From a virus (taxonomy: Duplodnaviria; Caudoviricetes): 64,000 nucleotides of DNA. The notes under the pieces were generated by a model. That model was not told the DNA's origin. It was given only the letters and a program-made list of their open reading frames with translations, and did not search any database. This document shows positions 22,923 through 57,004 of the stretch, piece after piece. The stretch is taken from IMG/VR virus record IMGVR_UViG_3300024272_002379, one strand, 5' to 3'. Every line of letters starts with the position of its first letter. Positions within the stretch are counted from its first letter, which is position 1. A program made the position numbers and the translations under genes.

Positions 22923-22940
22923 ATTTTGACCCCTCCTTTT

Positions 22941-24227: not shown

Positions 24228-24240
24228 ATTTTCACTCCTC

Positions 24241-25077: not shown

Positions 25078-25087
25078 AAAATACCTC

Positions 25088-26430: not shown

Positions 26431-26434
26431 ATTC

Positions 26435-26872
26435 TTACCTCCTTGGCTCCCATCCGAACTTAATAAATACACCTTTTACCAAGTCAAGTTCTGCCGTAAT
26501 TTCGTGAGAATACGTATCTTCTGTTTCGGATTGGTATATCTTTAAAAATATACTGTAGGTAATATTAGTATTGTTTTTGATTTCTGTCTTAATAAATATA
26601 TCGTTATCTGTCCATAAATCATCTACGGTTAGTACATCAATGATTTTCAATTTGCCATATTCAGCTATCTCTTCTGTACATGGTTTGCCAATAATCTCTT
26701 CTAAGTCTGCACCAATTTCATCAACAAACCATGTTTTAGATATAGATTTTATACGGTTATACGCTAATTGAATACGCAAATCATTACCTTTATTAGTCTG
26801 TATGTCATGCGTATTGCTGTCAACTATGATTTCTCCCTCTGGAGTAAATCCAAAATCGAATCCTTCTGCCAT
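26435..26872 (-). CDS. baseplate wedge protein (gp25/W-like)
   Basis: DFGFTPEGEI...WFVDEIGADLEEIIG; lies between spike and J; start moved to ATG 26872 after GGAG. Confidence 0.7.
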   Translation of the reverse strand: MAEGFDFGFTPEGEIIVDSNTHDIQTNKGNDLRIQLAYNRIKSISKTWFVDEIGADLEEIIGKPCTEEIAEYGKLKIIDVLTVDDLWTDNDIFIKTEIKNNTNITYSIFLKIYQSETEDTYSHEITAELDLVKGVFIKFGWEPRR

Positions 26873-26879
26873 AATTATA

Positions 26880-27590
26880 TCACTCCTTATTTGTTGTGTC
26901 ATTGATTATTTTACTTAAGTCAATTGTTTGATTATTAACTTGCAATGTTCCATATAAGCTAACTGTTTTGGTTTCAGGAGATATTCTAATACCTACACTA
27001 TTGGCTACAAAAATATCAATATCTCCATTTTCCTTAAGTTTTATTGTAGACTTAGTACTTAGATTAGTAATTCCCTGTTCTGCTTCTTTATATTTATCAA
27101 GAGTACTTAATACCTCATGTATCACTTCAGAAGAATCTATTTGACTATAGTCACCCAAATCATTGATATATTTCCCATAGTTAACATTTTCTTCTTCAAG
27201 CCAATTGCTTGTCATGGAAGTTATAGACCCTGGCTTTTCAATAGATAAAATACCAGAATCTATGATGTAAGCTCCTTGGTCTGTACATGTTTTTAATGCA
27301 TAGTTGTTTGATGTTAACCCAGTAATTATTGGATTATATATGTTATTCTTGATGAAGGTGATAGCACAGGTCTGGCCTGGATATATGCCAGCCCCTGTTA
27401 ATCCACCCAATGTATTGGCAATACTTACATTATCTCTGTACAAAAACCCTTCGCCATTTGGATTTAGATAACGTATCTTTGCAGTGTTAAGAACCATATT
27501 ATATTCAATGATAGTTGCAGTAGTATCATTGGATTGCTGTCTATTATTTTCTTCTATTTGTTGTTTTAATCTGTCTCTAACGATACCCAT
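26880..27590 (-). CDS. baseplate spike / gpV-like protein
   Basis: OB-fold-like N-terminus (PGQTCAITF...PII), beta-strand C-terminus (STIKLKENGDIDI); canonical position after the hub. Confidence 0.65.
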   Translation of the reverse strand: MGIVRDRLKQQIEENNRQQSNDTTATIIEYNMVLNTAKIRYLNPNGEGFLYRDNVSIANTLGGLTGAGIYPGQTCAITFIKNNIYNPIITGLTSNNYALKTCTDQGAYIIDSGILSIEKPGSITSMTSNWLEEENVNYGKYINDLGDYSQIDSSEVIHEVLSTLDKYKEAEQGITNLSTKSTIKLKENGDIDIFVANSVGIRISPETKTVSLYGTLQVNNQTIDLSKIINDTTNKE

Positions 27591-27607
27591 TTTATTTCTC
27601 CTATCAT

Positions 27608-33304: not shown

Positions 33305-33319
33305 AATACCTCCTGCTTT

Positions 33320-36300
33320 CTATGTTAATTCTGCAAATTTATTTGCTAACCAGTTATCGGTTACTCCACTCATATCTGATTGACTGTATACTGATGACTG
33401 TCCGCCACCAGCCATTCCGATAAGTTTAGCATTGTTTCTGTCATCAATGTAGTTTTTTGTTTTTGCTGATACTTTAAATTGTAGTCCACTTTGTTTATCA
33501 TGATATACAACTCTTTGTTTAGAAGCTGGAGCTTGTGCAACAGGAGCTGTCATATCAGGTTCTCCATTGCCACCAGGTCTTCTAGCTGGAGTTAGTGGAG
33601 ATTGGTTTTTCTGATTGTGAAGTATGTTATTTGCAATACCAATTGCTGCTAAAGATGCTACCGTAATTCCTACCGTTTTCATAGGTATTTTACTTACCGC
33701 TTCTTTTGCCGCATCAAAGAAAGAACCACGTAACGTATTCTGCTTCATATTGTTTTGCATTTTTTGATGCATCTTAGAAGCAAGGTTTGCATCGTTAATT
33801 ACTTTATTTGCATCTGCCAATATTTTTCTATGGTGTGCTATAACTTGTTTTGCTTCGGCAGAGCTTGCAGTATATATTCTACCGCTATTAGATGAGTTCT
33901 TTCTAAAATCATATGCTCTTAATGCTCTTTGTGTTCCCAATACAGCATCTGCATATAAGCCTGTCGCTTTTCCTTCGGCAATAATATCGCTAATGCTCTG
34001 CTGAATACGCTGAACATCTTTTGGACTTAGTGATTGGAATTGAATACCCATGTACTCACCAAAACCAACAACAGACGTACTGCTTACTCTATCCCATTCA
34101 AAAACACTAGCCATTTGTTTCGAATCTCTAAACAAACCGTATATTTTCGCTTGTGTTTCTGCTATCAATTTGGAATTGGATGCTTGTAATGCTTGTCGAA
34201 TCTCTCCAAGAGAAGAGCCTCTTGTATTTAATGTATCTCTTAAAGGTCTTACTAAATCTCCTTGAGATAATTCTTCTGCTGCTTGAACATATTTTTCTAT
34301 TTCAGCAAATGACTCTAATAACTTTGATTCTTCACCTATTATATCATATAGACCTTTATTTAAAAAGTCCAAAGATTCGTCATATAATTTTTTACTAAAG
34401 TCTCCAACATTAGTTCTTTTCTGTACAGCTCTAGCCCATTCTTCAGCTCCTCCGCTTGCAGATATAAGTCTTTCTTGAAGTAGCATATCAATAGAACTAT
34501 TAGCATATTTATCTCGATTCTTAGCTATATCAGCATTTAATTGTCTAATTAAAGCATCTACACTTACTCTGCCAGATGCATTAGTAGTATACTGATAAGT
34601 CTGAGCCATTTCATTAATGCTGTCTAATATTTGCTGTCCATTACCTTTAAAAAGACCATTAATGTATTCATAACTAGTTACATTAAATGCCATTTTATCT
34701 ATTTGTGCAAATCTAGGGTCAAAACTTTTAGCTATAGAACCGTCTGCTCCTAGTAATAACGAATTCAATGTTCTGGCTATTTTACGTTCAGCTATATTAC
34801 TATCAGCGATTGCTCGTATTTGACTATTATTTTTATATTCATAAATATTAACGCCAGCACCAGATTCTTTATTAAGTCCAAAAAAGTCTAAAGCTTTGCT
34901 GTTAATTGAGGCTATATTTTTTCCTTCGATTGAAAAAGTTTCACCTGTTTCTTCCAATGTGCTTAAGCTCACTTCTTTGAACATAGCTCTTTTAGACTTT
35001 CCAGAACCCTCAAAACCTGCATACATATATCCTCGGTCATGAGCATCGCCTAAGTCACCTGGTCGAATATATAAAGAATTTTTATCAAATAATATATGTG
35101 TATCACTTGATGCGTCCATAAAAGCTTCTCTAAATGCATTTTGGATTGTGCCATAGATACTACCTTTGTACTCTCCACGATGAGACAGGTCAAGTATCAT
35201 TCTCATGTAATCATCTAATGAGCCTGTATTAATACCTCTGTTAAAAATAACATTGGCACCTTCTAAGTTAGATATATCATACAAACCTCTGAACCATTTT
35301 TTATATATTATTGTCTCGGCGGTTTTTTTATCTACCTTTGAAATCTGTTTATCAAAATCGCTTCTAGTGGTAGACATGATTTCTTGTATAATACTCTTTA
35401 TCTCATCATCGCTGGCTTTAAATAAAACATGATTACTTGCTCGTATCATATTTTCAAGTCCCGCAGCTTTCATTGCTGCTGATGTATCTCTTAAGCTAAA
35501 CATTTGATTTAAGCCAAATGACCACTTAGAAGTTTCAGCAATGTTAAATGCATCAATTAAATGCTTTACGTCGATACCTTTCTGCTCTGTGATGCCAGTT
35601 AAACCTCTGGTTTCAGTTCGCATATTGGACATATCGTTTAATATTGATGTATACTCTTCACGTAATTCATCACTAAACTTAGGGTCATTTACAAATGACA
35701 GTATGGTTTCACGCAAATTAAAGTTTGGTGTGGAAATTGCACCGATATTACTTTTACGTAATGCAGGGGTTAAGGAAGCTTTTATTGAGTCAGCATCTGT
35801 AAGAGTATTGAATCCAGCTCTTTCCCATGCTCCTGTCATAAATTCCGAATGATTAGCTGCATCTAAAAAAGCATCATCTATATCTCTAACGTCTGTATAT
35901 GCATAACCTCTGTCGTCCATGTACGCTTTCACAGCATCCCAATATGCATCTTCTTTGAACGATTTAAGCATTCCAGCAAGAGCATTACCTGTGTCATTCA
36001 ACATATCTTTCTGGAAAGCTTTACCTTCTTCTATCATATTAGCGATAATTTCAGTACCGTAAGTAATACTCTTTTTGTAAGATTGTAACAAGTTATCGTA
36101 TCTATCTTGTCCTATCTTGCCCATGCTGTTACCATCGAGTACTAAATGTAAAAACGTGGTATCACCGTCAAAGTCAACATTTGTGTATACAGACATTGCA
36201 GGGTTTAAGAAACGAATTTGTCTATCCTGAATAGTCCTATCTAATAATACGTTTACGGCAGGCTGCCCTCCAAATACAGGATAACGTAAGTGTTCACCTA

Positions 36301-39300
36301 GTAAACCAACTGTTTCTACGTATTTTTTACCTATCTCTTCAAAGGTTCCAAAGATGCTAGTTAAGGACCCATTTGCAATGCCTCTATTTACATCTCTAAT
36401 GTCAAGCATTGAACTACCAGTTCCAGTATCACCATACAATTCTGTTATTTGTCTGTTTAAAGTTTTTGTGATACCAGCTCCGCCATTTTCAAGCAAATCA
36501 CTATCTGCAATATGGATTCCGTCTATGTCTAACGCATTGATTCTATCAACTACATCTTTTACTTCACTAGGCATAATGGAGAATCTATCCATACCTGGGA
36601 TTGAATATTTGCCTTTTGTACTTCCTTCAAAATCAGCAACAATATCCATACCTGCTTTTCCAAAGTCAAAACCAAGGTCTTTAAAACCTTGTTCTCCTAT
36701 TGCAACCGCATTATTGTAATATTGTTTTCCATCTATAGTTACAATAGAAGCATCACGTAATGTTCTATTTTGAATAGAAGATAGTGGGCTAAGAGTATCT
36801 GCATTTCTTACTTCGCTATCTGCAATTCGAGATAGTTTGGTTCTAATTTCAGCATCTAATTTTGAAAGCTTATTAATATTTTCAAGAGAATCTTCGCCAT
36901 TATGAATAGCTTGTCTTACACTATCTCTTTCTGCAATTAATTTTTGTACGTCATCGCTAAGCATAGAGTCTATAATCGCAGGAGTTTCATCTTGAGCAAG
37001 AAACTGACCAGAATTTGGTAATGCGTATCTACCAAACGCTTTATACATGTCAGAATCTTTTTTCATAATAGCAATTTCGCTATATAGTTGCTGAGCAAAA
37101 TTCTTGTAGTACTCAGACATTTTACCACGCATAGAAGGATTCTTCGCTGCTTCAATCATTTCATTAAAGAAACGAGTAATATTCCTATGCTGGTCCATCA
37201 AGAATTGGCTATCATCTAAGTGAGTTGTAACATTCTGTCTAGGAATTAAAGCACCTCTATATGTTTTTGTATCTTTACCTTTTCCTATTGTTATTTCTTC
37301 TCCAAAATCAAAGAAGATACTGTAACTTTTAGCATCAGTTAATTCAACATTTTGACGTTTAGCTAATGCTTCCAGCCAAGCCGCAGGTTTGCCATCAATA
37401 TCAAAAATGAAATCTTGAAGGTCTTTTACTCTTGCATTCTTTGGAACGTTTTTACCATTCATCAAATCTTGCATTGTAACAGTAACAATATTATATTCCT
37501 TAGGGTTGAAGCTTGCTGGATTTGCATAATAAGCAGAAGCTTCTACAATGCCACGAATGCTGTCTTGATTTGCCAATACACCTCTATTATATCGTCTTAT
37601 TTCACTTATATTGTTTTTCGATATGGCATCTGCTAATTCTTGTATTGCTCCTAAGTCATCACTTAAGAAACCAATACCCTTCCCAACGTCTTTTGACATT
37701 GCATATTCTTTGGTTGCGTCAACATATAAATCATCCCAAGAGCGACCACTTCCACCAACTATACGACCATTAACTCCGTCAATAATACCATCTGTTCCAC
37801 CTGATAAATATTCTTTATTTCTAATACGAATACTTTGCTCAAGTCGCTGGTCCATTCTAAACATGTTACTTAAGTGCTCATTCATATGAACTCTTTGTAA
37901 TGGACCATATATGATGTTATTCTCTCTATTGTATTGAAGTAATTTAGCAATTCTTGAATTAATAACATTACCATCTGTATGTGTTGTAATGTATTTTTCC
38001 AATGCTGTAATTGCTTCAACCATGTGAGCTGCGTTAGTGTTGTCAACAATAAATGTTTGACCGTTATCAGCAATATCTAAAGTCCAATCTTGGAAGTATT
38101 TATATAAACCATTTGACTTATCTTGAATGATGTTCCTTAAATTATCCAACTTACCGAATTTAGCATATTCGGCTTCGATTGTGTACCAAGTAGACCATGA
38201 GGCATAATTGTTATTATGCTTTGATGCAGCAATATTTCCAGCAACACTTGCATTATCGAATATATACTGGAACATTCCATGAGCATATTCCATGGCTTCT
38301 TTTTGTGTACTTATACCAGTATAGCTCATAAACGGTTTCATGCTAATTGTATGAGCAGTAGCTTTTTCTGAGCCAATCATTGTTTTAACGTCACTTATAG
38401 AAGCGTGTTCTGGTATTACATATGTACTTCCCTGTTCAAGTAATTCTTCTATATTCTCAAGGCTAAATTTTGCTTTAGGTCCTCTATAATAAATAGACTG
38501 TCCGCTTTCTGTTACAGCTATAACAGTATTACTGTCTAAATCTTTATATGCTAAATTTCCAAGTATTTTTCTTGTCTTTTGCTCGTCAATGTTGTTAATG
38601 TTAAAACTTACTTTTTTAGCATCAGGAGACTGGAAGAAATCTTGATTGCCTAATAGGGGGTCGAGAAACCATTTACCTTCGTAAACACTACTTAAATCCT
38701 CACGCATATACTGAAGAGTTGCTCTTGCTTTATCAACATCAAGACCCAATGCTTGAGCGATACTCTCTATATTCTTTTCAGCATCACGATATTTTAACTG
38801 TAAATCAATATCACTTATTTGTTTAAAGCGAGTTGTGATAGCTCTTTGCTGTGTATCAAAAGGTAATCCATCTGGAGTAAGTGTTGTTTTCCCAAGCTGC
38901 TGTCTTATACTATATTCTGTTGGAGTTAATGATGTAGGTCTTGCCATTATATACCCGCTTTTCAGTGGGTCATCTACTATTTCACCTTCTAAAGCTTTAA
39001 CATCTATTTCCCCAAGACCAAAATACATAGGTCTATTTTGCTGTGTATAAGTAGGTCTCATAGTACTAAATAATCCAGCAAGATTATTAAAAGCACCAGG
39101 TTTAATAAACGAAATCAACCCATGATTTATAGCAGATTCAGGTAGTAACTGATTAATATAAGGAATTGCTCCTTCAAAAGAAGATAATGCTTCAGCAACA
39201 GATTTTGTATAACGTTTATTATCAGAATCCATAGCTACTGCGTCTTGCATTAGTCGGAAAATACTTTTATCAAAAGACTCTGGTGTATACCCAATATCAT

Positions 39301-42300
39301 CAGGTATATAGGAACTTATTTGCATAGCAGAATCTCTCATTACACTACCATGGAATAGGTTCTTAACAAAAAATTCATTAAAAGCGTTTGATTCTGTAAT
39401 AGCTCTAAACTGTGTGACATTTTTAGCTTCTCTTAAGTCCGCACTTACTATATGCTGCTGCTCATTGAAAATATAGAGCATTTGTTGTATTGGATTGAAA
39501 CCTGATTCCGAATATGTTTCTGCTATTTCACCAATTAATGTCTTTAAACCAGTTACATTCATTTCATATGCATGTAAAAAGTCAGCAGGGTGGTAATTTG
39601 CAATACGTTCAACTCCATTGGCTGTCACATATCCTCTATAACTTGATGGAGATGATAGTTCCTTAAGTTTTGCATTTTGAGTTCTACGAATAGCTGATTG
39701 TGCTTTCTCGAATTCATCATTTAATACGAATTCAATTGCTTTTCCTCCAGCTATTCTATGAGCAACAAGTAAGTCTTCAGCACCCGATTTTATCATGGCA
39801 CTTACTTTTCCATTTTTTGAGTATACGTCAAAAATAGGATTTAAAAACTTTTCTATTCTTCCTTGATTGATAGACGTTAATGTAGCTGTATTTCCTGTAA
39901 TGCCATGTATAGCTTCTGGCATTGAATCACCTAAACTAGTTTTATTTATTCCATACAGTTCTTCTACGGCTCCATGTCCTTCTAATGCACTACTTAATGT
40001 ATGATAATCTACATCATCATTTAAGCCAGAAAGAATTTGTACCACACTATTGCTGTGTTTTTTATTGGTAAGTACTACAAAAGCGTTGGAACTATTTTCT
40101 GGCAGCAAAACGAATGACTGCAATCCTTTTTTAACGTTTTCAGGTGAGTTAATTGCGTAAGGAGCGTAATAAGATTTTCCGTTTTTCTTGTAATGAGATG
40201 AAAACATTTCCTCAACAATTGTTTTCTCATCAGTGCTAAGATTTAATTTACGAGCAATTTTGTTGGAAACGCCATCATGCATGGTTCCTGTATAAAATGA
40301 CATAGAAGTTACATCAGATAAAGATTGTGTAATTCTATCTTCAATAGCTTCTCTGACTGCCTTTTGTCCGAACAAAGAAGACGCCTGATAAAATTTTTCA
40401 CCAGACTGATAACGATAGCGTGACTGAGCACCTGTAAGTAAATTATCAACAATAGATTGCAAGTTCTTATTTGCAATTCTTATATCTGAACCATCAGCTA
40501 GAATTTGTCTATATTCATCTATTGCATTTGATGATGTATTAAATCTATCTGTAATACCAACTAACTGACTTGCTACATCTACAAGAAAACCATTGATGCC
40601 AGCATTTGGCTGGAATGATAAATCTATGCTATGTTTTAAAGATGTTACTTGTTCAGCAGTAATCAAACTTCTTGCTGCTAAGTTTTCTACGACAGAACCT
40701 GCTTCTTGAGCAGTCATGCCATTGAATATATTTCTAAGACCAGGTATGGCACTATCTACTGATTGTGCATTGATTCTTTTAAGCTCATTACCAACTTGAA
40801 CGTCAATACCAAATACGTCACTTAATCCATAATGGGCTTCTTTTGGGGTAAAAGCTATATACTGACTCGTTAAATAATCCATAGTACTATCGTAAGCTTT
40901 TTGTAATGCAATTGTCTTTGTAACATTATTTGCATTACCCATTGTACTATCAATTTGATTAACGATATAGCTAAGAATGTCTTTTTCCTGGCTTAATCTT
41001 TCAAACATACCAGCAAATGCTTGTTCTTGATAAGTACTTCTAAGTGGGCTGTTAGACACACCATGAAGACGAGAAACTAATGCTGGTCTCGCTTTTTTAT
41101 TTGCAAAATCTTCTAATCCATCTAATTCCTCTACAAAACTTAGATATCTTTTTAATCCTTCGAAACCATATTCATCGGTTCCTTTATTTGCACGAACTGA
41201 TAATGGGTCAAAAAATTTTGCGTATTCTCTTCTGCCTTTATCGAGATAGCCCATTACATGCTGTTCGTTAATTTGCTTTTGTGTAACTGCACTATCAGAA
41301 ATCCATGTGGTATTTTTTCTTAAAAACTCGATTGCTTTATCTGGAGTTTCAAACTCTTTATGAATTTCTATAGATTTATCGGCAGGGTTAATAAAGCTCA
41401 AAATAAACTTTTCTTGAGCTTCTCCAGTACTTCCATCTATTACACTTGCAAACCCTGTCTTTTCTGTATTCACTCTCCAATATTCATTACCCATAGAATA
41501 TGACTGAGGAATAGGGTCTCCTGCTATTACAGCCATATCAGATGTAGACTGGTCAATGTATCCTCTATTCATTAAGAATAATGAACCATTTAAATCTACA
41601 TTGTACGCTCCAATTGCATCTCCATTGCCAGTCATTTCTAGTAATGAATCAATAAAGGATTTATTACCATTGTAATGACGGGTGAATATAATATCTCCTT
41701 CGTTTACTGTATCTTCACTACCTATATGTAACTGACTTCTGTTCATGCGTAATGATTCCATGATACTTTCAACAGAAGCAGGTCTATCTGTATCAGATGG
41801 AATAATTCCATGCATTGCATCTGTAAAGCTCAATACAGATTGGCCTTTAGCGGTAGCCATTGTACGAACAGCATTTACAGCGTCAATTGTATTTTCATAT
41901 ATATGTCTAAAGTTAACACCTTGGTTAACCTCTAATCTTCTTGATGTCTGTTCTAATGCAGTAATATCAAATATATTATTTGCTCCTGCTAAAGCAGATG
42001 TATTAGAACCAACAGCATTGTTTATATATGCTGTTAATTGGGGAATGATAGCTTCAGGTCTCGCTCCGCTATTATAAAGTGTCTGTAATCTATCAGCACC
42101 AATTTTCATAATAGCTGGATTCATTGATGATTCGCCAAGTCTATTGACTGTCCAATAATGACCATCTCCAAGAACGGTATCATTTCTACTGAAAAATACG
42201 TCATGGAATGTTGGCAGGCTACCAATTTTACTAACTCTATCAAGAGTTACTTGTTCTGCATTAGTTAAAGCATCCCATCCAGATTTTTCATACTTGCTTA

Positions 42301-42766
42301 TTAAAGATTTAATTGCTAAAGTTTGTTGTTGATTTGTACCAAAAGCAAAAGACACCGCATTGGATAAGTCTGTATTTAATGCTCCATTTTCATAGACACG
42401 TCTACCAATACCAAATTCGGTAATGGTAGCGTATCCATCGTATTTACTTACTTGATGTGCAATATCACCAATAGTTTCAAGGTCCCATACGATTACTTCT
42501 CCAGAGCCTTCAGCTATTGTTTTTGCTTTTTGCCATTGAGGTAATGCACCAAGAGTCTGGAATACAGACTCTTGATTTTGGGAGTTAACGATTCGTAACG
42601 CACCCTCTAATGGATATGAACTTATCGCATTAATTGCAGACTGGTTTGGCTTTAAAACTGTATCTATATATTGTTCTTTGCTGCGTTTATTATATGGTCT
42701 AATATTTGTAATATTATCCCATATCTCTTGTGGGGATACATTATATCCTATAACTTCCATAAACAT
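33320..42766 (-). CDS. giant virion protein: DEDDh exonuclease plus single-chain two-barrel RNA polymerase
   Basis: WDLET / NNIFD / HIGSED at the N-terminus; LRYP...NPAMSVYTNVDFDGD (36161-36286); C-terminal hydrophobic helix. Confidence 0.75.
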   Translation of the reverse strand: MFMEVIGYNVSPQEIWDNITNIRPYNKRSKEQYIDTVLKPNQSAINAISSYPLEGALRIVNSQNQESVFQTLGALPQWQKAKTIAEGSGEVIVWDLETIGDIAHQVSKYDGYATITEFGIGRRVYENGALNTDLSNAVSFAFGTNQQQTLAIKSLISKYEKSGWDALTNAEQVTLDRVSKIGSLPTFHDVFFSRNDTVLGDGHYWTVNRLGESSMNPAIMKIGADRLQTLYNSGARPEAIIPQLTAYINNAVGSNTSALAGANNIFDITALEQTSRRLEVNQGVNFRHIYENTIDAVNAVRTMATAKGQSVLSFTDAMHGIIPSDTDRPASVESIMESLRMNRSQLHIGSEDTVNEGDIIFTRHYNGNKSFIDSLLEMTGNGDAIGAYNVDLNGSLFLMNRGYIDQSTSDMAVIAGDPIPQSYSMGNEYWRVNTEKTGFASVIDGSTGEAQEKFILSFINPADKSIEIHKEFETPDKAIEFLRKNTTWISDSAVTQKQINEQHVMGYLDKGRREYAKFFDPLSVRANKGTDEYGFEGLKRYLSFVEELDGLEDFANKKARPALVSRLHGVSNSPLRSTYQEQAFAGMFERLSQEKDILSYIVNQIDSTMGNANNVTKTIALQKAYDSTMDYLTSQYIAFTPKEAHYGLSDVFGIDVQVGNELKRINAQSVDSAIPGLRNIFNGMTAQEAGSVVENLAARSLITAEQVTSLKHSIDLSFQPNAGINGFLVDVASQLVGITDRFNTSSNAIDEYRQILADGSDIRIANKNLQSIVDNLLTGAQSRYRYQSGEKFYQASSLFGQKAVREAIEDRITQSLSDVTSMSFYTGTMHDGVSNKIARKLNLSTDEKTIVEEMFSSHYKKNGKSYYAPYAINSPENVKKGLQSFVLLPENSSNAFVVLTNKKHSNSVVQILSGLNDDVDYHTLSSALEGHGAVEELYGINKTSLGDSMPEAIHGITGNTATLTSINQGRIEKFLNPIFDVYSKNGKVSAMIKSGAEDLLVAHRIAGGKAIEFVLNDEFEKAQSAIRRTQNAKLKELSSPSSYRGYVTANGVERIANYHPADFLHAYEMNVTGLKTLIGEIAETYSESGFNPIQQMLYIFNEQQHIVSADLREAKNVTQFRAITESNAFNEFFVKNLFHGSVMRDSAMQISSYIPDDIGYTPESFDKSIFRLMQDAVAMDSDNKRYTKSVAEALSSFEGAIPYINQLLPESAINHGLISFIKPGAFNNLAGLFSTMRPTYTQQNRPMYFGLGEIDVKALEGEIVDDPLKSGYIMARPTSLTPTEYSIRQQLGKTTLTPDGLPFDTQQRAITTRFKQISDIDLQLKYRDAEKNIESIAQALGLDVDKARATLQYMREDLSSVYEGKWFLDPLLGNQDFFQSPDAKKVSFNINNIDEQKTRKILGNLAYKDLDSNTVIAVTESGQSIYYRGPKAKFSLENIEELLEQGSTYVIPEHASISDVKTMIGSEKATAHTISMKPFMSYTGISTQKEAMEYAHGMFQYIFDNASVAGNIAASKHNNNYASWSTWYTIEAEYAKFGKLDNLRNIIQDKSNGLYKYFQDWTLDIADNGQTFIVDNTNAAHMVEAITALEKYITTHTDGNVINSRIAKLLQYNRENNIIYGPLQRVHMNEHLSNMFRMDQRLEQSIRIRNKEYLSGGTDGIIDGVNGRIVGGSGRSWDDLYVDATKEYAMSKDVGKGIGFLSDDLGAIQELADAISKNNISEIRRYNRGVLANQDSIRGIVEASAYYANPASFNPKEYNIVTVTMQDLMNGKNVPKNARVKDLQDFIFDIDGKPAAWLEALAKRQNVELTDAKSYSIFFDFGEEITIGKGKDTKTYRGALIPRQNVTTHLDDSQFLMDQHRNITRFFNEMIEAAKNPSMRGKMSEYYKNFAQQLYSEIAIMKKDSDMYKAFGRYALPNSGQFLAQDETPAIIDSMLSDDVQKLIAERDSVRQAIHNGEDSLENINKLSKLDAEIRTKLSRIADSEVRNADTLSPLSSIQNRTLRDASIVTIDGKQYYNNAVAIGEQGFKDLGFDFGKAGMDIVADFEGSTKGKYSIPGMDRFSIMPSEVKDVVDRINALDIDGIHIADSDLLENGGAGITKTLNRQITELYGDTGTGSSMLDIRDVNRGIANGSLTSIFGTFEEIGKKYVETVGLLGEHLRYPVFGGQPAVNVLLDRTIQDRQIRFLNPAMSVYTNVDFDGDTTFLHLVLDGNSMGKIGQDRYDNLLQSYKKSITYGTEIIANMIEEGKAFQKDMLNDTGNALAGMLKSFKEDAYWDAVKAYMDDRGYAYTDVRDIDDAFLDAANHSEFMTGAWERAGFNTLTDADSIKASLTPALRKSNIGAISTPNFNLRETILSFVNDPKFSDELREEYTSILNDMSNMRTETRGLTGITEQKGIDVKHLIDAFNIAETSKWSFGLNQMFSLRDTSAAMKAAGLENMIRASNHVLFKASDDEIKSIIQEIMSTTRSDFDKQISKVDKKTAETIIYKKWFRGLYDISNLEGANVIFNRGINTGSLDDYMRMILDLSHRGEYKGSIYGTIQNAFREAFMDASSDTHILFDKNSLYIRPGDLGDAHDRGYMYAGFEGSGKSKRAMFKEVSLSTLEETGETFSIEGKNIASINSKALDFFGLNKESGAGVNIYEYKNNSQIRAIADSNIAERKIARTLNSLLLGADGSIAKSFDPRFAQIDKMAFNVTSYEYINGLFKGNGQQILDSINEMAQTYQYTTNASGRVSVDALIRQLNADIAKNRDKYANSSIDMLLQERLISASGGAEEWARAVQKRTNVGDFSKKLYDESLDFLNKGLYDIIGEESKLLESFAEIEKYVQAAEELSQGDLVRPLRDTLNTRGSSLGEIRQALQASNSKLIAETQAKIYGLFRDSKQMASVFEWDRVSSTSVVGFGEYMGIQFQSLSPKDVQRIQQSISDIIAEGKATGLYADAVLGTQRALRAYDFRKNSSNSGRIYTASSAEAKQVIAHHRKILADANKVINDANLASKMHQKMQNNMKQNTLRGSFFDAAKEAVSKIPMKTVGITVASLAAIGIANNILHNQKNQSPLTPARRPGGNGEPDMTAPVAQAPASKQRVVYHDKQSGLQFKVSAKTKNYIDDRNNAKLIGMAGGGQSSVYSQSDMSGVTDNWLANKFAELT

Positions 42767-45700: not shown

Positions 45701-48700
45701 GTACCGATTACTTTATTAAGACTGTATCTTTGTAAATCCTGATTAACATTATATAAATTCATTGTATCTGGGACATCTACCACATTTAAAGCACCAGATG
45801 GAGTACTATAAACTTCATAAGGAGTGTTGTATCTATCGTAAGTTCTTACTGGTAAAATACTTCTTTGCTCGAAGTCAATACCTGCATTATCTCTAATGGT
45901 TCTTTTAGTAATCTGTTTCGCTTGATAAGCAGATGTATATAAGTTATTGCTGTCGGCAATAGCAGAAGCGGCTGCACTTTGTTCTGCTCGATTAAAGGTA
46001 TTAATGTCCCTTTCTGAGTTATCAAAAGAAGACCTGCCTTCAGTTAACAATGTACTTGGTAATTCATCCATGGGATTTATCTGGAATCCATTTTGCCAAT
46101 ATTCTAGGTGCATCTTTTGAGGTGGGCTAATAACACTTCCAATAGTAGAACCAAACAATGGTCCTATGATTGGTATATTTTGTCCCACTGGAGCAGTTTG
46201 CAAATATGGTCTATCGTAATAATGTTTTTTATCATAATAATTACGATTAAAAATAAAGTGATTTAATGGAGCCAATGGATTTACAGGATTAGGGAACCAT
46301 GTATTATTATAATACTCTTGACGAGAACCCCATTTAGAATCACTAAACTCTACGTCAGCTTGTACACGACGATATAAATTAGGTCTGAAATACATAATCT
46401 TTCCACCAGTGAAAGGTGTATTACCAGAACCCCAATAGCGTCCTTTACGAATTGGGTCGTAACCATTTTCAATGTATTCTTCACGTTCCTCTGCTGTTTG
46501 TCCTAATCCTAATTGATATACGCCAGGCAATTCGTTTATCTGGTCAGAACCTGGTGTCATTTCTCCTAAGAATTTAAATAACTTTGTAGCCCCTACTAAA
46601 TCCATTGCATGATGAGCCCCAATATCAATTGGTCTTACTACATTACGCATCATGAATTTTGTTATATTGTCTCGGTTACCTGTTTCATCTCCAGACCCAA
46701 AAAATGGTTCTGATAAGTAATTAATTACACCAGGAACTTGAGTAGCTAAAAAGATAGGCAATGCTCTTTTAGTTAGTAAATTCCATGCCATACTAGTAGA
46801 TGAGCGTTTACTATCTATACTTAAGCCTAGTAAGTATGAAGCACTTCCTAATCCTTCTGATAACTGATTTAATATAGACCAAGTAAATCCTGAACGTTCA
46901 GTGAAAAACTCATGCATTGTATTATCGGCATTACGGCCTACAAAGAATTGCTTTGCAAAACCTTCAAGCTCATGAAGGGCTTTATCGGTATCTCCTTGAC
47001 TAAAATAATTATAAGCCTGAGAAACTTTAAATCCTTCTTTTGTGGTGCTGTACATACGAGGCTGAAAATCTTTACCGTCTACTTTGAATTTTTCATGCCC
47101 TTCACCAAATACGCTCTTGTAATTAAACTGTCTTACCTGATTTAGCATTTCCTGAACGTCATCATATTCATAGCCATTTACACGAACTTTCTCTGTCATT
47201 TTATTGATAAGATTGTCCATGAATTCGTCAAAGTTTGTTGCTGTATCCAATGTTCTTTCGACATCTTCTCCCATAGGTCTGGACTCTTGATAACCCATAT
47301 CTAAGAACTTACTAGCTTCGTATTTAAACTTCTGGAATTTATTTAACTCAACACCTTCTTCTCTAAGAAGGGCTTCGTATTTATCTAATGCTATCTTTTG
47401 AGCTTCCCCCATACTTAAGCCACTCATCTGACGTGTAGCATTATGCATAGGTTTTAAACCGTATGATTCGTCTGCATAGGTAATGTCATGTAATTTAAAA
47501 CCACTACCTAACTCTTGAAGCTGGGCATTCCCATCAGTGGTATATGCCTTACCATTAATGATAGCTATATTTTTATATCTATAATCATCCCCAAAAGTTT
47601 CTGCCATCCATTCGCCTATCTTGTATTCTCGTCCACCCATTCTTGTAATATTGGCATCATACTGTTCTGAATTAATTAATCCCATTAAAGGTTTACGACG
47701 ACCTATTTTATCAAATCCAAATAATGTTTTGAATGGATTAAACTGAACTAATGGTAACTTGAAATCATTAGCAAGAGAATGAGCAAATTCTATCATATTA
47801 TTTTTTGACATACGATAATCTATAATGTGACCAGATTCATTGATTCTAATGCTGGAATCTACTATTATGTTTTGCCAATCTCCACTTGCAAAAGCATTGG
47901 TTGGTTTCCCATCTTTCATATATCTATGAGAGCTATATGAAAAGAAATCATTTACACTATCCAATAGTGATTCATATTTTTCATTTGTTCTTGAGTCTAT
48001 ATTGAAATCAATGCCTTCTTTTCTGACCAATTTTCTAACGCCGAATTCATCTCGTGTTAATTCAGCTACATCTCCAAGAGTAAGCTTGCGATAACCAGAT
48101 TCACTTAATTCTTGTGCTGCTTGTCTTGGATTTAAGGTCATTGCATTCATGAATTCCTCTATTGCTTTAGAGGTAAACTGAGTAGCTTGCGTAGGAGCAT
48201 TTTGTCTGGCATCAAGTTCTAGTCCACGCAATTCTTTCATACGATAATGAAGGTCTGTATTTAAATAATTAGTTCTTTGAGTTGCCAAATTACTTTGACT
48301 ATCTTGTATCATTTTGGAAAGAAGACCAATGTCTTGTTTAGTTCCTTCCATTAACTCTCTCATTCGATGAAAATTAGTTTGTCTAGTTCCAGATATATCT
48401 TTAAAGTCTTGCATTAAATCATAGAATACGCTGGATTCCCTATCTCGAAACAAACTCATTTTAGGCATTGTATAGTTTTGATTTTGACTAATAGGTTTAA
48501 GATTTGACCATTGTTTTATTGTACGCATTACCGTACCTGCTCTATCCGTACCTTCTCTGGCAATATTATCTGCAAGCTCAAGCAAAGGTCTCATGATATC
48601 TTTTAATGCTCCGCTTTTAAATAATCCATAACCAGTAGCACCAACAAGTCCAATCTTAATCATATTGTACAATGGGTCATTATCGCTTGTATCCTGATGG

Positions 48701-48756
48701 TCTATATGTGTTTGAGTGTTTAGAATTCTTCTTTCTAATCTGTTGTCTGATAACAT
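42772..48756 (-). CDS. tape-measure-position giant protein with PD-(D/E)XK nuclease and thermonuclease-like domains
   Basis: Directly follows the tail chaperones; GNEIH...VE...YDA...VDIKS...QTNFY; VTKIIDNNTI...FAGIN...VNQVLLNKGHA; Gly-rich hydrophobic segments. Confidence 0.75.
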   Translation of the reverse strand: MLSDNRLERRILNTQTHIDHQDTSDNDPLYNMIKIGLVGATGYGLFKSGALKDIMRPLLELADNIAREGTDRAGTVMRTIKQWSNLKPISQNQNYTMPKMSLFRDRESSVFYDLMQDFKDISGTRQTNFHRMRELMEGTKQDIGLLSKMIQDSQSNLATQRTNYLNTDLHYRMKELRGLELDARQNAPTQATQFTSKAIEEFMNAMTLNPRQAAQELSESGYRKLTLGDVAELTRDEFGVRKLVRKEGIDFNIDSRTNEKYESLLDSVNDFFSYSSHRYMKDGKPTNAFASGDWQNIIVDSSIRINESGHIIDYRMSKNNMIEFAHSLANDFKLPLVQFNPFKTLFGFDKIGRRKPLMGLINSEQYDANITRMGGREYKIGEWMAETFGDDYRYKNIAIINGKAYTTDGNAQLQELGSGFKLHDITYADESYGLKPMHNATRQMSGLSMGEAQKIALDKYEALLREEGVELNKFQKFKYEASKFLDMGYQESRPMGEDVERTLDTATNFDEFMDNLINKMTEKVRVNGYEYDDVQEMLNQVRQFNYKSVFGEGHEKFKVDGKDFQPRMYSTTKEGFKVSQAYNYFSQGDTDKALHELEGFAKQFFVGRNADNTMHEFFTERSGFTWSILNQLSEGLGSASYLLGLSIDSKRSSTSMAWNLLTKRALPIFLATQVPGVINYLSEPFFGSGDETGNRDNITKFMMRNVVRPIDIGAHHAMDLVGATKLFKFLGEMTPGSDQINELPGVYQLGLGQTAEEREEYIENGYDPIRKGRYWGSGNTPFTGGKIMYFRPNLYRRVQADVEFSDSKWGSRQEYYNNTWFPNPVNPLAPLNHFIFNRNYYDKKHYYDRPYLQTAPVGQNIPIIGPLFGSTIGSVISPPQKMHLEYWQNGFQINPMDELPSTLLTEGRSSFDNSERDINTFNRAEQSAAASAIADSNNLYTSAYQAKQITKRTIRDNAGIDFEQRSILPVRTYDRYNTPYEVYSTPSGALNVVDVPDTMNLYNVNQDLQRYSLNKVIGTQQRVSISNITGPGIPVGNDNRLIDNAFVYGLGEQFNWLGDIAGLKGFALQTFVTGEANEKARMIENSGYAYSFNNDFWEENLGGFGGTLSEITRRFIPKRNNKTEYVNPIRNTMPSWMPGSDYFTDFKHGDPYSKIDNGEERLPGEGYERLHNIKGLMEFNIGSSSIGYEKDYIIKHMLKADKYMSTFEEDTLEKGNEIHKQIQQSWLDAGLAIDVEGKVEDKRNGIIGWYDAKVHDLSSPTGVAIVDIKSTSAKKLNEIRKSGKPLTHHMRQTNFYLWATGNTNSKGYIYYVDKENPNNTYTVGFDYSESELKKTLQNVYEARQTIRKAIERGEIGRGELYSTLDRFRILADVAPYSQEFKDVSAQLSREDLSPEEQQEASQIRERIKQQKEPLRVYDYKFKTSNLKTETVTVTKIIDNNTIVTKEYGKQHAIKFAGINVSMSNSEMYDEERTKNDAARSAIRKYIRPGARIRISYDADEHNKYSKDSSRSIRAVVHSRGVNVNQVLLNKGHAKEKENDNSPAAIQARYTKGEIAFGSAMETLTHDVIGNIPFIGSKFLQVRSPYEQYRKREVYSKDFQSWNHPIRDILIPHIEENIANNSLGGLGGILMGGFIGSLFGKGRFGKLVGTVVGATVPAIGKVAFIAGSNEDRDWRPKRRREQEKLNEYVDILKYVKNIRLYEQYKVKAKKEDHFDVETFMKSKEAKGVSNKLRQQELTDYKRKVKLDFKHRDRYNFKYGEPKYVDKSMSKKQTISAINKELGELQSQRKVTKLPKNALKAIEFKQAAEQTMYGYDPGESLVNIMTALPKKERQYFQHFVDAPEEEKEKILRIAPSYLRRALQSAWGMPVDEKPSLNEYFRTHGLPDASWIGWDESTNIEDVKVKLVHQNNLDPGEFDIWDDDLEQADEVNIPIPMIDATNGPRQVQVRLNQILGRAGYENVQTSFMQSSNGNKTSFFIKRDARDDVSRQIAGLQI

Positions 48757-49438
48757 CTAATATCACCTCATCATTCCAGTGTGTTCCACCTATTAATGGG
48801 AAGTCTAATATCTCATGAGTAAATGTAGACTTTAATTCTTCTGAGAAATAATACATAGGGTCAATACCGTTATTCTGTAACTCCTTTATAAATTCTGGAT
48901 TATTAGAGTTCATTTTGCTCATTTCTTCCATGTATTCTTCTGTTTGGTCTTGAATATGCCAATCAAATCCTTTAAGCTCAGCAACTCTTTCCGCACGTAC
49001 TGTCATGTACATAAGTTTTTCCCATGTCCACTCTTCCATTTCCTCATATGTACATTCTGGAATAAATGCTTTAATTAAGTCCATACATTGAAGTTCAAGA
49101 GTTGTAGTTTCTTTCATCTGTCTGTATTCATTAAGTACGTGCTGTATATCTTTTAAACCAGATGTAGTTTGTATAACATCAGCAACGTACTCGTTCAAAC
49201 CTGCAAAACCGCAAGTATCAAAATCATATTCTTCTGGATAGATACAACATGTATTACATATAGCATCTTCCATGTCTAATTGAGAACTACATGATTTTAT
49301 GATGTATTTATACTCTTTTCTGGTTAATGTTCTAAATATAAAATCTGTATCTAAAAAACGGACATAAATAATCTTATGTCCGCTGTAAAGGTCTTTGTAG
49401 TAGTTTAGCAATGTAACATCTACTTTATTATCAGCCAT
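48680..49438 (-). CDS. tail assembly chaperone 2
   Basis: FIFRTLTRKEY...ICNTCCIYP, paralogous to 49450..50013; position before the tape-measure locus. Confidence 0.7.
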   Translation of the reverse strand: MADNKVDVTLLNYYKDLYSGHKIIYVRFLDTDFIFRTLTRKEYKYIIKSCSSQLDMEDAICNTCCIYPEEYDFDTCGFAGLNEYVADVIQTTSGLKDIQHVLNEYRQMKETTTLELQCMDLIKAFIPECTYEEMEEWTWEKLMYMTVRAERVAELKGFDWHIQDQTEEYMEEMSKMNSNNPEFIKELQNNGIDPMYYFSEELKSTFTHEILDFPLIGGTHWNDEVILDVIRQQIRKKNSKHSNTYRPSGYKR

Positions 49439-49449
49439 GACAAATCCTC

Positions 49450-50013
49450 CTAAAGTACCTCTATACCATATTCTTTTGTAAATCCTGAGTTCTCCATAAT
49501 GATTTGAGCAAGAGCACTAGGATAGCCGCTGTCTTCTGCTGCCATCTTTTTAAAATCATAGTTAAAAGGCCAAAGGACACATGTATGACAAATAATTTCT
49601 TCTCGATATAAAGCATCAATATTTTCAATTGCTACAATTTGTTTGTATTCGAATCTGTTAAGGGTTCTAAATACAAAATGCTTATCAAGTATCTGTGTGT
49701 GGAAAATCTTCTCTTTTGTGAATTGTTTTTTCCAAATATCAATCTGGGAAACACCAGGACCATTTTCAAAAATCGGAGTATCATTAGGGTCAATATAGTA
49801 CTCATCTTCATTTTCTGGTTCATATTGAATATTGATTGGATTATCGTAATCATATCCTTGTCTGGTAATTTCAGGAACGCCCTGATATGTATCTTCTGAT
49901 TCTAGTTCAGCACGCATATCAGCATATATATCTTCTTCGTTTCCTGCTTGTTTCTGCTGTGTTTCTAATTTAAGTTTCGCTGCATTCATTAAGTCTTGCA
50001 TATTTTGGTCCAT
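49450..50013 (-). CDS. tail assembly chaperone 1
   Basis: IDIWK...FVFRTLNRFEY...ICHTCVLWP...IMENSGF; position between tube and tape-measure locus. Confidence 0.75.
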   Translation of the reverse strand: MDQNMQDLMNAAKLKLETQQKQAGNEEDIYADMRAELESEDTYQGVPEITRQGYDYDNPINIQYEPENEDEYYIDPNDTPIFENGPGVSQIDIWKKQFTKEKIFHTQILDKHFVFRTLNRFEYKQIVAIENIDALYREEIICHTCVLWPFNYDFKKMAAEDSGYPSALAQIIMENSGFTKEYGIEVL

Positions 50014-51091: not shown

Positions 51092-51103
51092 TGTTACACC
51101 TCC

Positions 51104-54595: not shown

Positions 54596-57004
54596 TTAGG
54601 CAGCAGCTCTAAGAGCAACTACTGTTGTAATCTTGCGTAATTCCATTGGACATACAAGTGTTAATGCGATTGAGCATTCACCAAGTACCTGCTGCTGGAT
54701 TGTTGCATTGATTTCGAACTCATAGTGAAGGATTTCACCCTGTTCCATCAAGTAGCTTAATCTCTTAGAGATAAGTGCAGATAATGCATTACGCTGTTCC
54801 ACTGTATTTGGCTCACCAATGAATGGGTCAGATACTTCACGAATCTGGTCTACAACGTCAGTTACTACTTTTACAGTAGATAATCTAGCGTAGTCAGAAC
54901 CAGGAGCACCTGCTGTACAGCCATCTACTACATAAGGAACAGATGAAGCTGTTGTTGTACCTTCATTCTTAAGCTTAAATACAACCATTCTGTTACCTAT
55001 TAATTCGTTCATCTGTTTGTTAGAGAATTTATATTTCATTCCCTTAACTCCTGGAAGAGCTTTATTAGTAGGAGCAGATTGTGGGTTTAAGGAACCGTTT
55101 AATGCTGCATATGCAATCGCTGGAGAACCGTAATATGTTCCAAGTGTATCAGAAATCATTACTGGTTCTGGACCAACAACAACTGATGTATACCAGCCGA
55201 TATCCATCTTATTGCCTGCTGTGTCAACGATATCATTGCCATCAGCATCCTGCATATAATGAACATTGTTGTATTCAAGTAATTTTGAAACGTAATTCTG
55301 AATACCAACAAGTGTAGTATTTGAATTAGGTTTAACATCAATGAAACCATGTGTCATCTTTGTTCTGTAAGTTAATACAGCACAGAGTAACGCAAGTTCA
55401 CGATGGAAGCTGCTATTTGGATTTACTGTCTGTTTTGAATCAGCGTAAACACCAGCAGGATAGATGTAATCTACATTGTAGTTTTCAAGAATCTGGTAAG
55501 CACCCTGTTCTTCAAGGTAACCAGCAGAATTTCTCTTACCTGATAATGCTTCAAACATCTGGTTATTTGTTACAACAACGCCGTCTTCACCACCGTTAAC
55601 AAGAGTACTGCTGAATACAGGGAAGTCACTTGTTAAGATATCTTCGTTATCTGTAACGATTTCGAATACGTTATTTAACGAATAGTTAGCTAATGCCTGT
55701 TTAAGCATACCAACTGTTGGGCATTCAAATGATGTAAAGTAGAATGGTAAGTCTGCATCAGAGTATCTCTTAGCTTCAGGCTTTGTGAAAGTGAACTTTC
55801 TACCTTCTACACCGTTATCATCTGTAATTGCTGTAATTGTAATTGTAGCAGGATTATAGATAGCACCACCATAAATGGCACGAACAATCATTGATTCCTT
55901 GTACTCTGTTACTTCTTCGTATTTGTAAGCAATAGAGAACTTATCATTGATTGTAAAGTTACCTGCTGTTAATGATACTGTGTCTCCTACAACAGTATAA
56001 TCTGATGCTGGAACAACAGCACCTGCTACTGTTAAAACAACAGTACCAGCTTTTGGCATTTTTGGAAGAGTGATAACCTGGTCTGTATCAGTTAATGCAA
56101 CTGTTTCACTTGCACCAGTAACTTTTGTGAATACATAGTATTCAATATCCACTGTATTAGTAAGGGCAACTGCTCCGCCACTAACAAATGATAATACGTT
56201 ACCAGCAATTGTGTAGTCTGTGCCTTCAACAAGTACAGAACCATCATCCATTGTTACTTTTACGCCATCAGTAACTGGGTATACACCAGCCGCATCTGTA
56301 ATAGGCTGACCAAAAGTATCTCTTGGTGTAACATAAATTTCCTGATTAGCTACTGGGTCAAACTGTAATAAAACAGTATCAAAAGCAACGCCATCAGTTG
56401 AAGCTGCAACTGTTAAATGTTCTTTCTTTGTTGTATCAATATCCTTATAGTCATAAGTAGCAACTAATGTACTATTCTTAGAAACGATACCTGCTGGAAC
56501 AACAAATTCGCCTTCATATTCTACATAATTGCCTTTAACTACTTCAAGACCGCCTGCTGTAAGTGTTAAGGATGCTCCATAAATCGGTGTATTTGTTACT
56601 CTCAGAGTTGCTTCTGCATTACCCTGAATAGAGCCAATAACAGGTGTAGCGTCGATTTCTTCTGTAGTTGTAGAAACTACTTTAGGAATCTCTACGTATG
56701 CCTGAGAGCCAGTTACTCTCATACATCTTACATCGGTAAAGCCATTTCTAAACGCCTGCTTTGCATACTTTGTAAGAGTTGCACCGTTAGGATATCCATT
56801 TTCATTTACTTCTGAACCAAATAACTGACCAACAGTATCTTTGTCAATCTTTACTGGCTCATTTACAGGACCGTCAAATGCAGTACCTAAGATAAGTAAG
56901 CTTTTACCACCAGTTACTTCTGTGTTGGAAGTTAACTGTAAGCCGCCGTCTTTAAATTCTACAAGATGTCCAGGTAGATTTGGATATAAATTTGTAACAG
57001 CCAT
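54596..57004 (-). CDS. major tail sheath protein with inserted beta-sandwich domains
   Basis: YPNLPG start, LILGTAFDGPVNEPV, SAPTNK, RLSTVKVV...FIGEPN, ELRKI C-terminus. Confidence 0.9.
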   Translation of the reverse strand: MAVTNLYPNLPGHLVEFKDGGLQLTSNTEVTGGKSLLILGTAFDGPVNEPVKIDKDTVGQLFGSEVNENGYPNGATLTKYAKQAFRNGFTDVRCMRVTGSQAYVEIPKVVSTTTEEIDATPVIGSIQGNAEATLRVTNTPIYGASLTLTAGGLEVVKGNYVEYEGEFVVPAGIVSKNSTLVATYDYKDIDTTKKEHLTVAASTDGVAFDTVLLQFDPVANQEIYVTPRDTFGQPITDAAGVYPVTDGVKVTMDDGSVLVEGTDYTIAGNVLSFVSGGAVALTNTVDIEYYVFTKVTGASETVALTDTDQVITLPKMPKAGTVVLTVAGAVVPASDYTVVGDTVSLTAGNFTINDKFSIAYKYEEVTEYKESMIVRAIYGGAIYNPATITITAITDDNGVEGRKFTFTKPEAKRYSDADLPFYFTSFECPTVGMLKQALANYSLNNVFEIVTDNEDILTSDFPVFSSTLVNGGEDGVVVTNNQMFEALSGKRNSAGYLEEQGAYQILENYNVDYIYPAGVYADSKQTVNPNSSFHRELALLCAVLTYRTKMTHGFIDVKPNSNTTLVGIQNYVSKLLEYNNVHYMQDADGNDIVDTAGNKMDIGWYTSVVVGPEPVMISDTLGTYYGSPAIAYAALNGSLNPQSAPTNKALPGVKGMKYKFSNKQMNELIGNRMVVFKLKNEGTTTASSVPYVVDGCTAGAPGSDYARLSTVKVVTDVVDQIREVSDPFIGEPNTVEQRNALSALISKRLSYLMEQGEILHYEFEINATIQQQVLGECSIALTLVCPMELRKITTVVALRAAA

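Follow-up and report, generated by a model that had tools for sequence, protein, structure and literature searches.

A giant tail-module protein from an uncultured contractile-tailed phage with a predicted single-chain two-barrel RNA polymerase

The delivery of an RNA polymerase (RNAP) into the cell by the infecting phage is an established concept, with examples in the crAss-like phages, N4, PhiKZ and Thermus phage P23-45. Here we describe a giant protein, P0001, which appears to be undescribed in its architecture, its lineage and the combination of its domains; no paper on its family was found in the literature searched, the coverage of which was incomplete. It is encoded at 33320..42766, on the minus strand, of a 64,000-nucleotide stretch of viral DNA (Duplodnaviria; Caudoviricetes; IMG/VR record IMGVR_UViG_3300024272_002379), hereafter the window. 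Among the described systems, the crAss-like phages are podovirus-like and carry their enzyme as capsid or ejection cargo; the virion-delivered gp66 of phi14:2 (PDB 6VR4) is a giant protein with a single-chain two-barrel enzyme of the QDE-1 type, which has no beta lobes. The polymerase of N4, gp50, has a T7-like right-hand fold and is unrelated to the two-barrel enzymes. It is described as a virion protein of ~3500 amino acids (aa) with a central polymerase, which is injected and performs early transcription (PMC13492108). Virion enzymes of the PhiKZ type consist of four or five separate proteins, and their genes lie outside the tail block (PMC7598289, PMC7824862). In the siphovirus P23-45, the giant tail-module protein gp96 (PDB 8H2M/8H2N) has an N-terminal single-chain two-barrel polymerase with a DFDGD motif, which is 'flat' and has no clamp, and membrane segments C-terminal to it (PMC10770324).

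P0001 is the product of an intact open reading frame (ORF) of 3148 residues and belongs to an unnamed metagenomic family. From its predicted fold and the conservation of its active-site residues, it is very probably a single-chain two-barrel RNAP. A sequence-only reading of the window had proposed such an enzyme at 35540-38700; the single-chain two-barrel reading was upheld by the models described below but the extent was not, as the polymerase module occupies ~35147-39949 (residues 940-2540). The six motifs on which that proposal was built are all present in P0001 where it had placed them. On the minus strand, these are YEG (residues 1362-1364; 38675..38683), a candidate counterpart of the E813/D814 acidic motif of beta; DVKTMIGSEK (residues 1459-1468; 38363..38392), a predicted beta-hairpin in which K1461 and K1468 are candidate active-site lysines of the beta-type barrel; LRYP (residues 2160-2163; 36278..36289), part of the catalytic barrel core; NVDFDGD (residues 2196-2202; 36161..36181), the predicted metal-binding Asp triad; KSNIGAIS (residues 2338-2345; 35732..35755), a bridge-helix candidate where two long helices meet; and EQKGIDVKH (residues 2394-2402; 35561..35587), a trigger-loop candidate in a helix-loop-helix. 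The catalytic barrel core as a whole, L-R2161-Y-P2163...N2196-V-D-F-D-G-D2202, spans 36161..36289 and was assigned from invariance and hhalign.

The family was found by exhaustive phmmer to contain at least 62 representatives of 50%-identity clusters, mostly 3100-3650 aa in length and several of them on contigs of ~210 kb, and a word-indexed search returned 21 proteins of 3126-3307 aa. No match to residues 1900-2600 was found by tblastn in 50,697 phage records, and ESM Atlas searches with features of the N-terminal part and with the shape of the beta-like model gave nothing usable. A core alignment of 72 sequences was made over residues 1340-2539 (1200 positions), in which the homologues have 20-53% identity to P0001, with one at 84%, and the mean column identity is 20%. 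Nine columns are invariant (G2154, R2161, P2163, D2198, D2200, G2201, D2202, G2342 and S2345), and all nine are located in or beside the predicted active-site motifs, namely RxP, DxDGD and the bridge-helix-like segment. Conservation of at least 90% was observed for K1461, E1467, K1468, K1516, H1517, E2394, Q2395, I2398, D2399 and K2401. For residues 940-1760, R1237, P1238, K1461, E1467, K1468, H1517 and R1641 are invariant in 53 sequences. The 21 full-length homologues have in common the core residues K1461/E1467/K1468, R2161/P2163, N2196/D2198/D2200/G2201/D2202, K2338/G2342/S2345 and E2394/Q2395/K2396, and outside the core D95/E97, H347/D352 and an extended stretch within the last 100 residues. 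The YEG position is Y/N-E-G in most homologues.

The six motifs are not chance occurrences. As the invariant residues all lie in or beside active-site motifs at a mean identity of ~20%, the pattern indicates selection for the predicted catalytic activity. The same pattern bears on whether P0001 could be a structural relic, in which a polymerase-derived fold would provide bulk or a scaffold in the tail and would be non-catalytic. Giant tail proteins often carry decayed domains, and the protein that occupies the corresponding slot in Bacillus phage 0305phi8-36 has no polymerase motif, but a relic is hard to reconcile with invariance that lies entirely in or beside the active site, and we consider this explanation very improbable.

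The beta'/Rpb1-like module (residues ~1748-2540; 35147..37525, minus strand) has an N-terminal clamp-like part, a second barrel with a ~225-aa insert, and helices in the order of those in beta'. An AlphaFold2 model of residues 1340-2539 was built on the 72-sequence alignment (model numbering starts at residue 1340) and had a pLDDT of 88.2 and a pTM of 0.88. The best 50 Foldseek matches to it in the Protein Data Bank (PDB) were all RNAP largest-subunit chains of the beta'/Rpb1 type. Since all Foldseek E-values against the PDB were >0.07, we relied on VIA-align, which for the chains listed by Foldseek gave Z-scores of 8.8-9.4 over up to ~430 residues, with model residues 409-1199 collinear with residues 23-1345 of E. 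coli beta'. In an unbiased VIA search of 48,161 representative chains, places 1-15 were all taken by two-barrel polymerases. The beta'/Rpb1 chains scored Z 9.0-7.1, with model residues 409-1199 on beta' 13-1248 and the best scores (Z 8.7-9.0) over 360-400 residues, and came from bacteria, archaea, Pol I, II, III and IV, vaccinia, African swine fever virus (ASFV), AR9 and PhiKZ. Single-chain enzymes were matched across both barrels (model residues ~20-1175), with Z 8.6 for maize RDR2, 8.5 for QDE-1, 6.8 for P74 gp62, 6.3 for crAss phi14:2 gp66 (403 residues aligned) and 5.5 for P23-45 gp96. The paired barrels anticipated by the sequence-only reading were therefore recovered in searches that were not directed at polymerases. 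Bare double-psi beta-barrels (among them Cdc48-N and designed DPBB proteins) aligned to model residues 579-899, a span which shows that the predicted catalytic barrel is split by the ~225-residue insert.

Profile comparisons pointed to the same barrel. With hhalign, the family profile set R-Y-P...NVDFDGD on residues 422-469 of E. coli beta' (E 0.0098), in line with the proposed parallel between LRYP plus NVDFDGD and the catalytic barrel of beta', and matched residues 721-889 of P23-45 gp96, around the DFDGD of that protein (E 5.7e-4). Further downstream, KSNIGAIS is in model helices 986-1000 and 1003-1020, and EQKGIDVKH in helices 1049-1059 and 1061-1066; collinearity with beta' makes them candidates for the bridge helix and the trigger loop respectively. 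As P0001 has no cysteine in its 3148 residues, it has no zinc sites of the beta'/Rpb1 type.

The beta/Rpb2-like module (residues ~940-1747; 37526..39949, minus strand) comprises lobes and the first barrel, and its N-terminal border may lie further upstream. An AlphaFold model of residues 940-1760 had a pLDDT of 88.5 and a pTM of 0.83. In the unbiased VIA search with this model exactly nine chains reached Z>=8, all of them second-largest RNAP subunits: Pol I A135 (Z 12.2), plastid beta, Pol IV, vaccinia Rpo132, Pol III, ASFV, PhiKZ, AR9 and Xanthomonas beta (Z 10.2). These alignments covered 295-424 residues, with residues 5-698 of the model placed on A135 33-1045 and residues 1-698 on Xanthomonas beta 134-1287, and the next match was at Z 5.3, a value that no single-chain enzyme exceeded. 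The best 50 Foldseek matches for this half were also mostly beta/Rpb2 chains, and N4 chains appeared only in low-probability rows. DVKTMIGSEK forms a two-strand hairpin in the models, and its two lysines, K1461 and K1468, invariant as given above, are candidates for the beta-type barrel lysines (beta K1065/K1073). In the hhalign comparison with E. coli beta, the best segment set S-V-Y-E-G on Y-N-F-E-D-S (810-832), and at an E-value of 0.41, which is not significant, the alignment of YEG with the acidic motif of beta is only a hint.

The multisubunit RNAPs (bacterial, Rpb1/Rpb2, PhiKZ and AR9) are thus the best matches of both halves; the matches are collinear along almost the entire subunits, occur in the same order, beta then beta', and include the same catalytic motifs. 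P0001 differs from them in that both subunits are fused in one 3148-aa chain with ~10% identity, and no alpha- or omega-like partners are evident. The sequence-only reading had cited the virion-delivered single-chain RNAPs of crAss-like phages and P23-45 as precedents. Single-chain enzymes do match across both barrels, but the nearest folds are the beta and beta' chains of cellular and jumbo-phage multisubunit enzymes, so P0001 is assigned to a fused beta-beta' type and not to the crAss/QDE-1 type. It is less similar to phi14:2 gp66 than to the cellular enzymes, and has no match to PF05183, the family of the single-chain enzymes QDE-1, RDR2 and YonO; unlike these, its beta-like half fits multisubunit-type chains only. 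P23-45 gp96 and P0001 are alike in being giant tail-module proteins with a single-chain two-barrel polymerase, a DFDGD motif and hydrophobic sequence C-terminal to the polymerase. However, P0001 comes from a contractile-tailed jumbo phage, its polymerase is internal (940-2540), it has beta-type lobes and an exonuclease-like N-terminus, and it fits cellular beta/beta' (Z 9-12) far better than gp96, to which its sequence similarity is confined to the catalytic loop.

These comparisons also bear on the template and product of the enzyme: it could instead copy RNA templates, lay down primers on the injected DNA in the manner of a primase, or synthesise DNA as PolD does. RDR2 and QDE-1 score almost as high as beta', QDE-1 is described as using dual templates (PMC9508822), and an exonuclease-like domain on the same chain is more usual for a DNA polymerase. 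On the other hand, the beta-like half keeps the lobes of the DNA-dependent multisubunit enzymes and matches only those, no PolD chain was among the best 50 VIA matches listed, and N-x-D-F-D-G-D is the form of the motif in E. coli beta'. We therefore favour a DNA-dependent RNAP and regard these other activities as improbable.

The window is a tail and baseplate block, with genes almost exclusively on the minus strand, that encodes a sheath, a sheath paralogue, tube-like proteins, a pair of proteins in chaperone position, a baseplate wedge and fibre-like proteins. From the sheath, the genes run through tube-like genes, the chaperone pair, a 1994-aa gene and P0001 to a lysin-bearing hub, a series syntenic with gp139-gp147 of 0305phi8-36; the order in the window matches gp137-gp147 of that phage. 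The tail sheath gene (54596..57004, minus strand; phrog_16991, E 2e-173; 37% identity to the 0305phi8-36 sheath) identifies this as a contractile-tailed, myovirus-type phage. The chaperone pair (252 and 187 aa; 48680..50013, minus strand) is paralogous, as seen from the cross-matching of phrog_29368 and phrog_29362, and was placed by synteny with gp143/gp144. Three giant ORFs are then arranged in series on the minus strand, at 42772-48756 (1994 aa), 33320-42766 (P0001) and 27608-33304 (1898 aa). The gene had been described as lying between the tail chaperones and the hub, which is correct, but it does not follow the chaperones directly, as the 1994-aa gene intervenes; P0001 is one gene removed from the pair, as is orf146 in 0305phi8-36.

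The 1994-aa protein is the positional counterpart of gp145 and has a PD-(D/E)XK nuclease domain (Pfam E 9e-5; phrog_1706 E 8e-11) and a DUF3854/Toprim-like region (E 0.006). It joins P0001 as a giant of the tail block with enzyme domains, and its gene is the one that directly adjoins the chaperone-like pair. The 1898-aa protein is of the hub type, has NlpC/P60, glucosaminidase and Hydrolase_2 domains, and is the positional counterpart of gp147. This order of three giant genes is kept in near-identical copies from other samples, in related viral contigs and in Acinetobacter phage ME3.

The 0305phi8-36 record lists gp145 (1930 aa) and gp146 (2537 aa, 'hypothetical tape measure protein') as present in virions by mass spectrometry, and gp147 as a lysin-bearing hub. 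Hardies et al. called orf146 the tape measure mainly from tail length, and found alignment with positional homologues from related elements to be limited to its last 60 residues (PMC2147016). In our comparison of the family with gp146 by hhalign, only the last ~130 residues were aligned (E 0.025, probability 2%). A polymerase homologue in gp146 was considered and rejected, as BLASTP gave nothing, hhalign gave only this weak C-terminal alignment, and the protein has no DxDxD motif. The slot is therefore conserved while its cargo differs between P0001 and gp146, and the C-terminal module is probably conserved with the slot. With regard to tape-measure traits, P0001 has one hydrophobic helix, but at least 1600 of its residues fold as compact polymerase modules in the models.

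The C-terminal module consists of a helix (residues 3027-3050), which is the sole strongly hydrophobic stretch of P0001, and the final ~100 aa (33323..33688, minus strand). Conservation peaks here, at 0.64 over the last 128 residues, against ~0.40 for the polymerase modules and 0.28 for the variable linker that separates the two (residues 2541-3020; 33707..35146, minus strand), which is the least conserved part and the first portion of which is helical in the model. We propose that the helix and tail are a module for membrane insertion and tail docking. P0001, 0305phi8-36 gp146 (22623-30236) and ME3 gp36 (1603 aa) all lack cysteine, which is striking at such sizes, and this absence may relate to unfolded passage through the tail.

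At the N-terminus is a DEDDh-exonuclease-like region (residues ~85-360; 41687..42514, minus strand) with the motifs W-D-L-E-T and H-x4-D, in which D95, E97, H347 and D352 are invariant in the 21 homologues. Pfam support for an exonuclease is faint and was obtained in two homologues (DEDDh_C, E 0.056; RNase_T, E 0.48). A similar string, Y-L-D-I-E-T-T-G, is also carried by gp146 of 0305phi8-36, near residue 1180. The ~500 residues between the exonuclease-like domain and the beta-like module have no assigned fold.

Host and T7 polymerases reel the T7 genome into the cell, and the polymerase of P0001 could similarly serve mainly to pull in a genome of ~210 kb while anchored by its C-terminal helix. 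Consistent with this, the chain that bears the polymerase also has a membrane helix and a conserved C-terminal tail, the genome is very long (208-218 kb in relatives), and the P23-45 authors proposed that transcription is coupled to translocation through a tape-measure pore (PMC10770324). Nothing in the sequence of P0001 separates genome-pulling from early gene expression and the two overlap, but as the principal role we consider genome-pulling unlikely, and early transcription is preferred.

The search for viral relatives with predicted structures (BFVD) by Foldseek gave four matches with E <1e-3: an unnamed protein chunk (A0A7R7G2L5, 6.8e-12), a 'minor tail protein' from an uncultured siphovirus (A0A8S5SD80, 7e-7), a protein from ME3 (4.7e-4; TM-score 0.40 by target) and a fragment of a giant crAss protein. 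The first two match the polymerase model better than the ME3 protein does. Polymerases fused to tail proteins may accordingly be commoner than the published cases suggest. ME3 (vB_AbaM_ME3) is a 235-kb Acinetobacter myovirus with a structural module like that of 0305phi8-36. The matched chunk is 802 aa in length and corresponds to the second half of a 1603-aa protein, from which the match is taken to be gp36 (AND75197.1, 'hypothetical protein'; 33172-37983), encoded between the gp145-like and hub genes. Like P0001, gp36 has the same slot, no cysteine, a C-terminal hydrophobic helix and a single RxP...DxDxD segment; D-H-D-Q-D is its only DxDxD site and is preceded by R-E-P with the spacing found in P0001. 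However, it is half the length and has no significant sequence similarity to P0001. The R-E-P...D-H-D-Q-D segment was the best in the hhalign comparison of the family with gp36, at a non-significant E of 0.75, and no match between P0001 (1900-2600) and ME3 was found by tblastn. A survey of 224 jumbo phages found phage-encoded polymerases only in PhiKZ-like phages and two YonO-bearing phages (PMC7824862); as ME3 was included, gp36 went unrecognised there. ME3 is also absent from the table of viral polymerases in the P23-45 paper (PMC10770324), and no PF05183 gene was found in its genome. As ME3 is cultured, the idea is directly testable.

A second polymerase was found in the relatives of the window phage. 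In 0305phi8-36, Iyer et al. recognised ABS83659.1 as a two-barrel enzyme resembling YonO (PMC7824862); this protein is gp99, and its gene adjoins the right terminal repeat. Three complete IMG/VR relatives (208-218 kb) each have a P0001 homologue and a gp99-like gene near a genome end, and these gp99-like genes exceed the Pfam cut-off for RdRP (PF05183), with a Rho_N domain in one copy. The PF05183 genes are at 194288-195487 in the first relative (G001), at 3307-4038 and 205762-206898 in the second (G002), and at 3465-4493 in the third (G003). The matches at both ends of G002 are as expected for a gene in or near a terminal repeat. In P23-45, the tape-measure-fused enzyme was shown experimentally to transcribe pre-early genes that include the gene for a second two-barrel polymerase, one that is not part of the virion (PMC10770324), and the same combination of a structural-module polymerase with a separate polymerase in the early region is seen in the relatives described here.

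It was also considered whether P0001 could be an active polymerase that is not part of the virion, either made late for the next round or acting on late genes. The positional counterpart in 0305phi8-36, which has no polymerase motif, is compatible with this. Against it, the polymerase is fused to a membrane helix and to a C-terminal module that gp146, a virion protein, also has; all relatives keep strict synteny from the chaperone pair to the hub; P0001, gp146 and gp36 all lack cysteine; and the separate YonO-type enzyme of the relatives fits that role. We find a non-virion polymerase improbable, and prefer a virion protein.

Given that P0001 is a polymerase, its packaging, its ejection through the tail and host-independent early transcription are likely, judging from the synteny, the C-terminal module and the two-polymerase pattern. 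P0001 would be built into the tail with its two giant neighbours and docked there by its C-terminal module. On contraction of the sheath, it would be expelled ahead of or with the DNA, and its hydrophobic helix would enter the membrane. Once in the cytoplasm, the polymerase would begin transcription of the entering genome independently of the host enzyme, and the genes transcribed first probably include that of the YonO/RdRP-type second polymerase, which would take over later. The scheme follows the logic demonstrated for P23-45.

Several observations weigh against a giant tail-associated virion protein with an embedded polymerase. No meaningful match to the whole of P0001 was found in Pfam or PHROGs, and searches of PDB sequences with phmmer and profile hmmsearch gave chance matches only. 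The Foldseek E-values against the PDB were 0.08-0.4 for both models, each non-significant, and the Z of ~9 for the beta' half is moderately above the stated background of the tool. The lysines K1461/K1468, the bridge helix and the trigger loop are candidate assignments. The virion evidence is borrowed from gp146, which is weakly similar to P0001 at the C-terminus, and the lack of a DxDxD motif in gp146 means that a polymerase is not always found in this slot. Finally, a folded core of ~180 kDa would need to be unfolded to pass the tail tube. Taken together with the evidence for the fold, the conservation and the synteny, this explanation as a whole, a tail-associated giant of the virion in which a single-chain two-barrel RNAP is embedded, is still on balance probable.

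Other features of the window relate to the tube region and the host. Two proteins of the tube region (51878-53569 and 50477-51865, minus strand) have PG_binding_1 segments, and endolysin-type PHROG matches at residues 371-451, which is unusual beside a tail tube gene. A Gram-positive host is suggested by the cell-wall hydrolases of the window, which include a SleB-type domain, and by its relatedness to phages of Bacillus and Moorella. Runs containing the window DNA come from several studies of animal faeces and gut metagenomes, and no RNA run is listed. A scan of 185,579 species genomes found no relative, and thus no link to a host or prophage.

A broader possibility, which we put forward as tentative, is that a lineage of 0305phi8-36-like jumbo myoviruses, from animal-gut metagenomes to ME3, loads its contractile tail with a set of enzymes instead of a plain tape measure. 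The set would consist of the nuclease/Toprim giant and a cysteine-free beta-beta' RNAP fused to a DnaQ-like exonuclease. If true, this would be the first case of a multisubunit-type polymerase that enters through a contractile tail as a single polypeptide, and also the first of an RNAP whose own chain includes a dedicated 3'-5' exonuclease domain. P0001 would represent a fifth, structurally distinct solution to polymerase injection, beside those of N4, the PhiKZ-like phages, the crAss-like phages and P23-45, and one that occurs in a widespread but uncultured group of jumbo phages of the gut. A near-complete beta plus beta' architecture as one chain in a tail protein bears on the evolution of the two-barrel polymerases, and also on how an enzyme of ~180 kDa passes a tail tube. 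The giants of this lineage that are annotated as 'tape measure' or 'minor tail protein' would need re-annotation.

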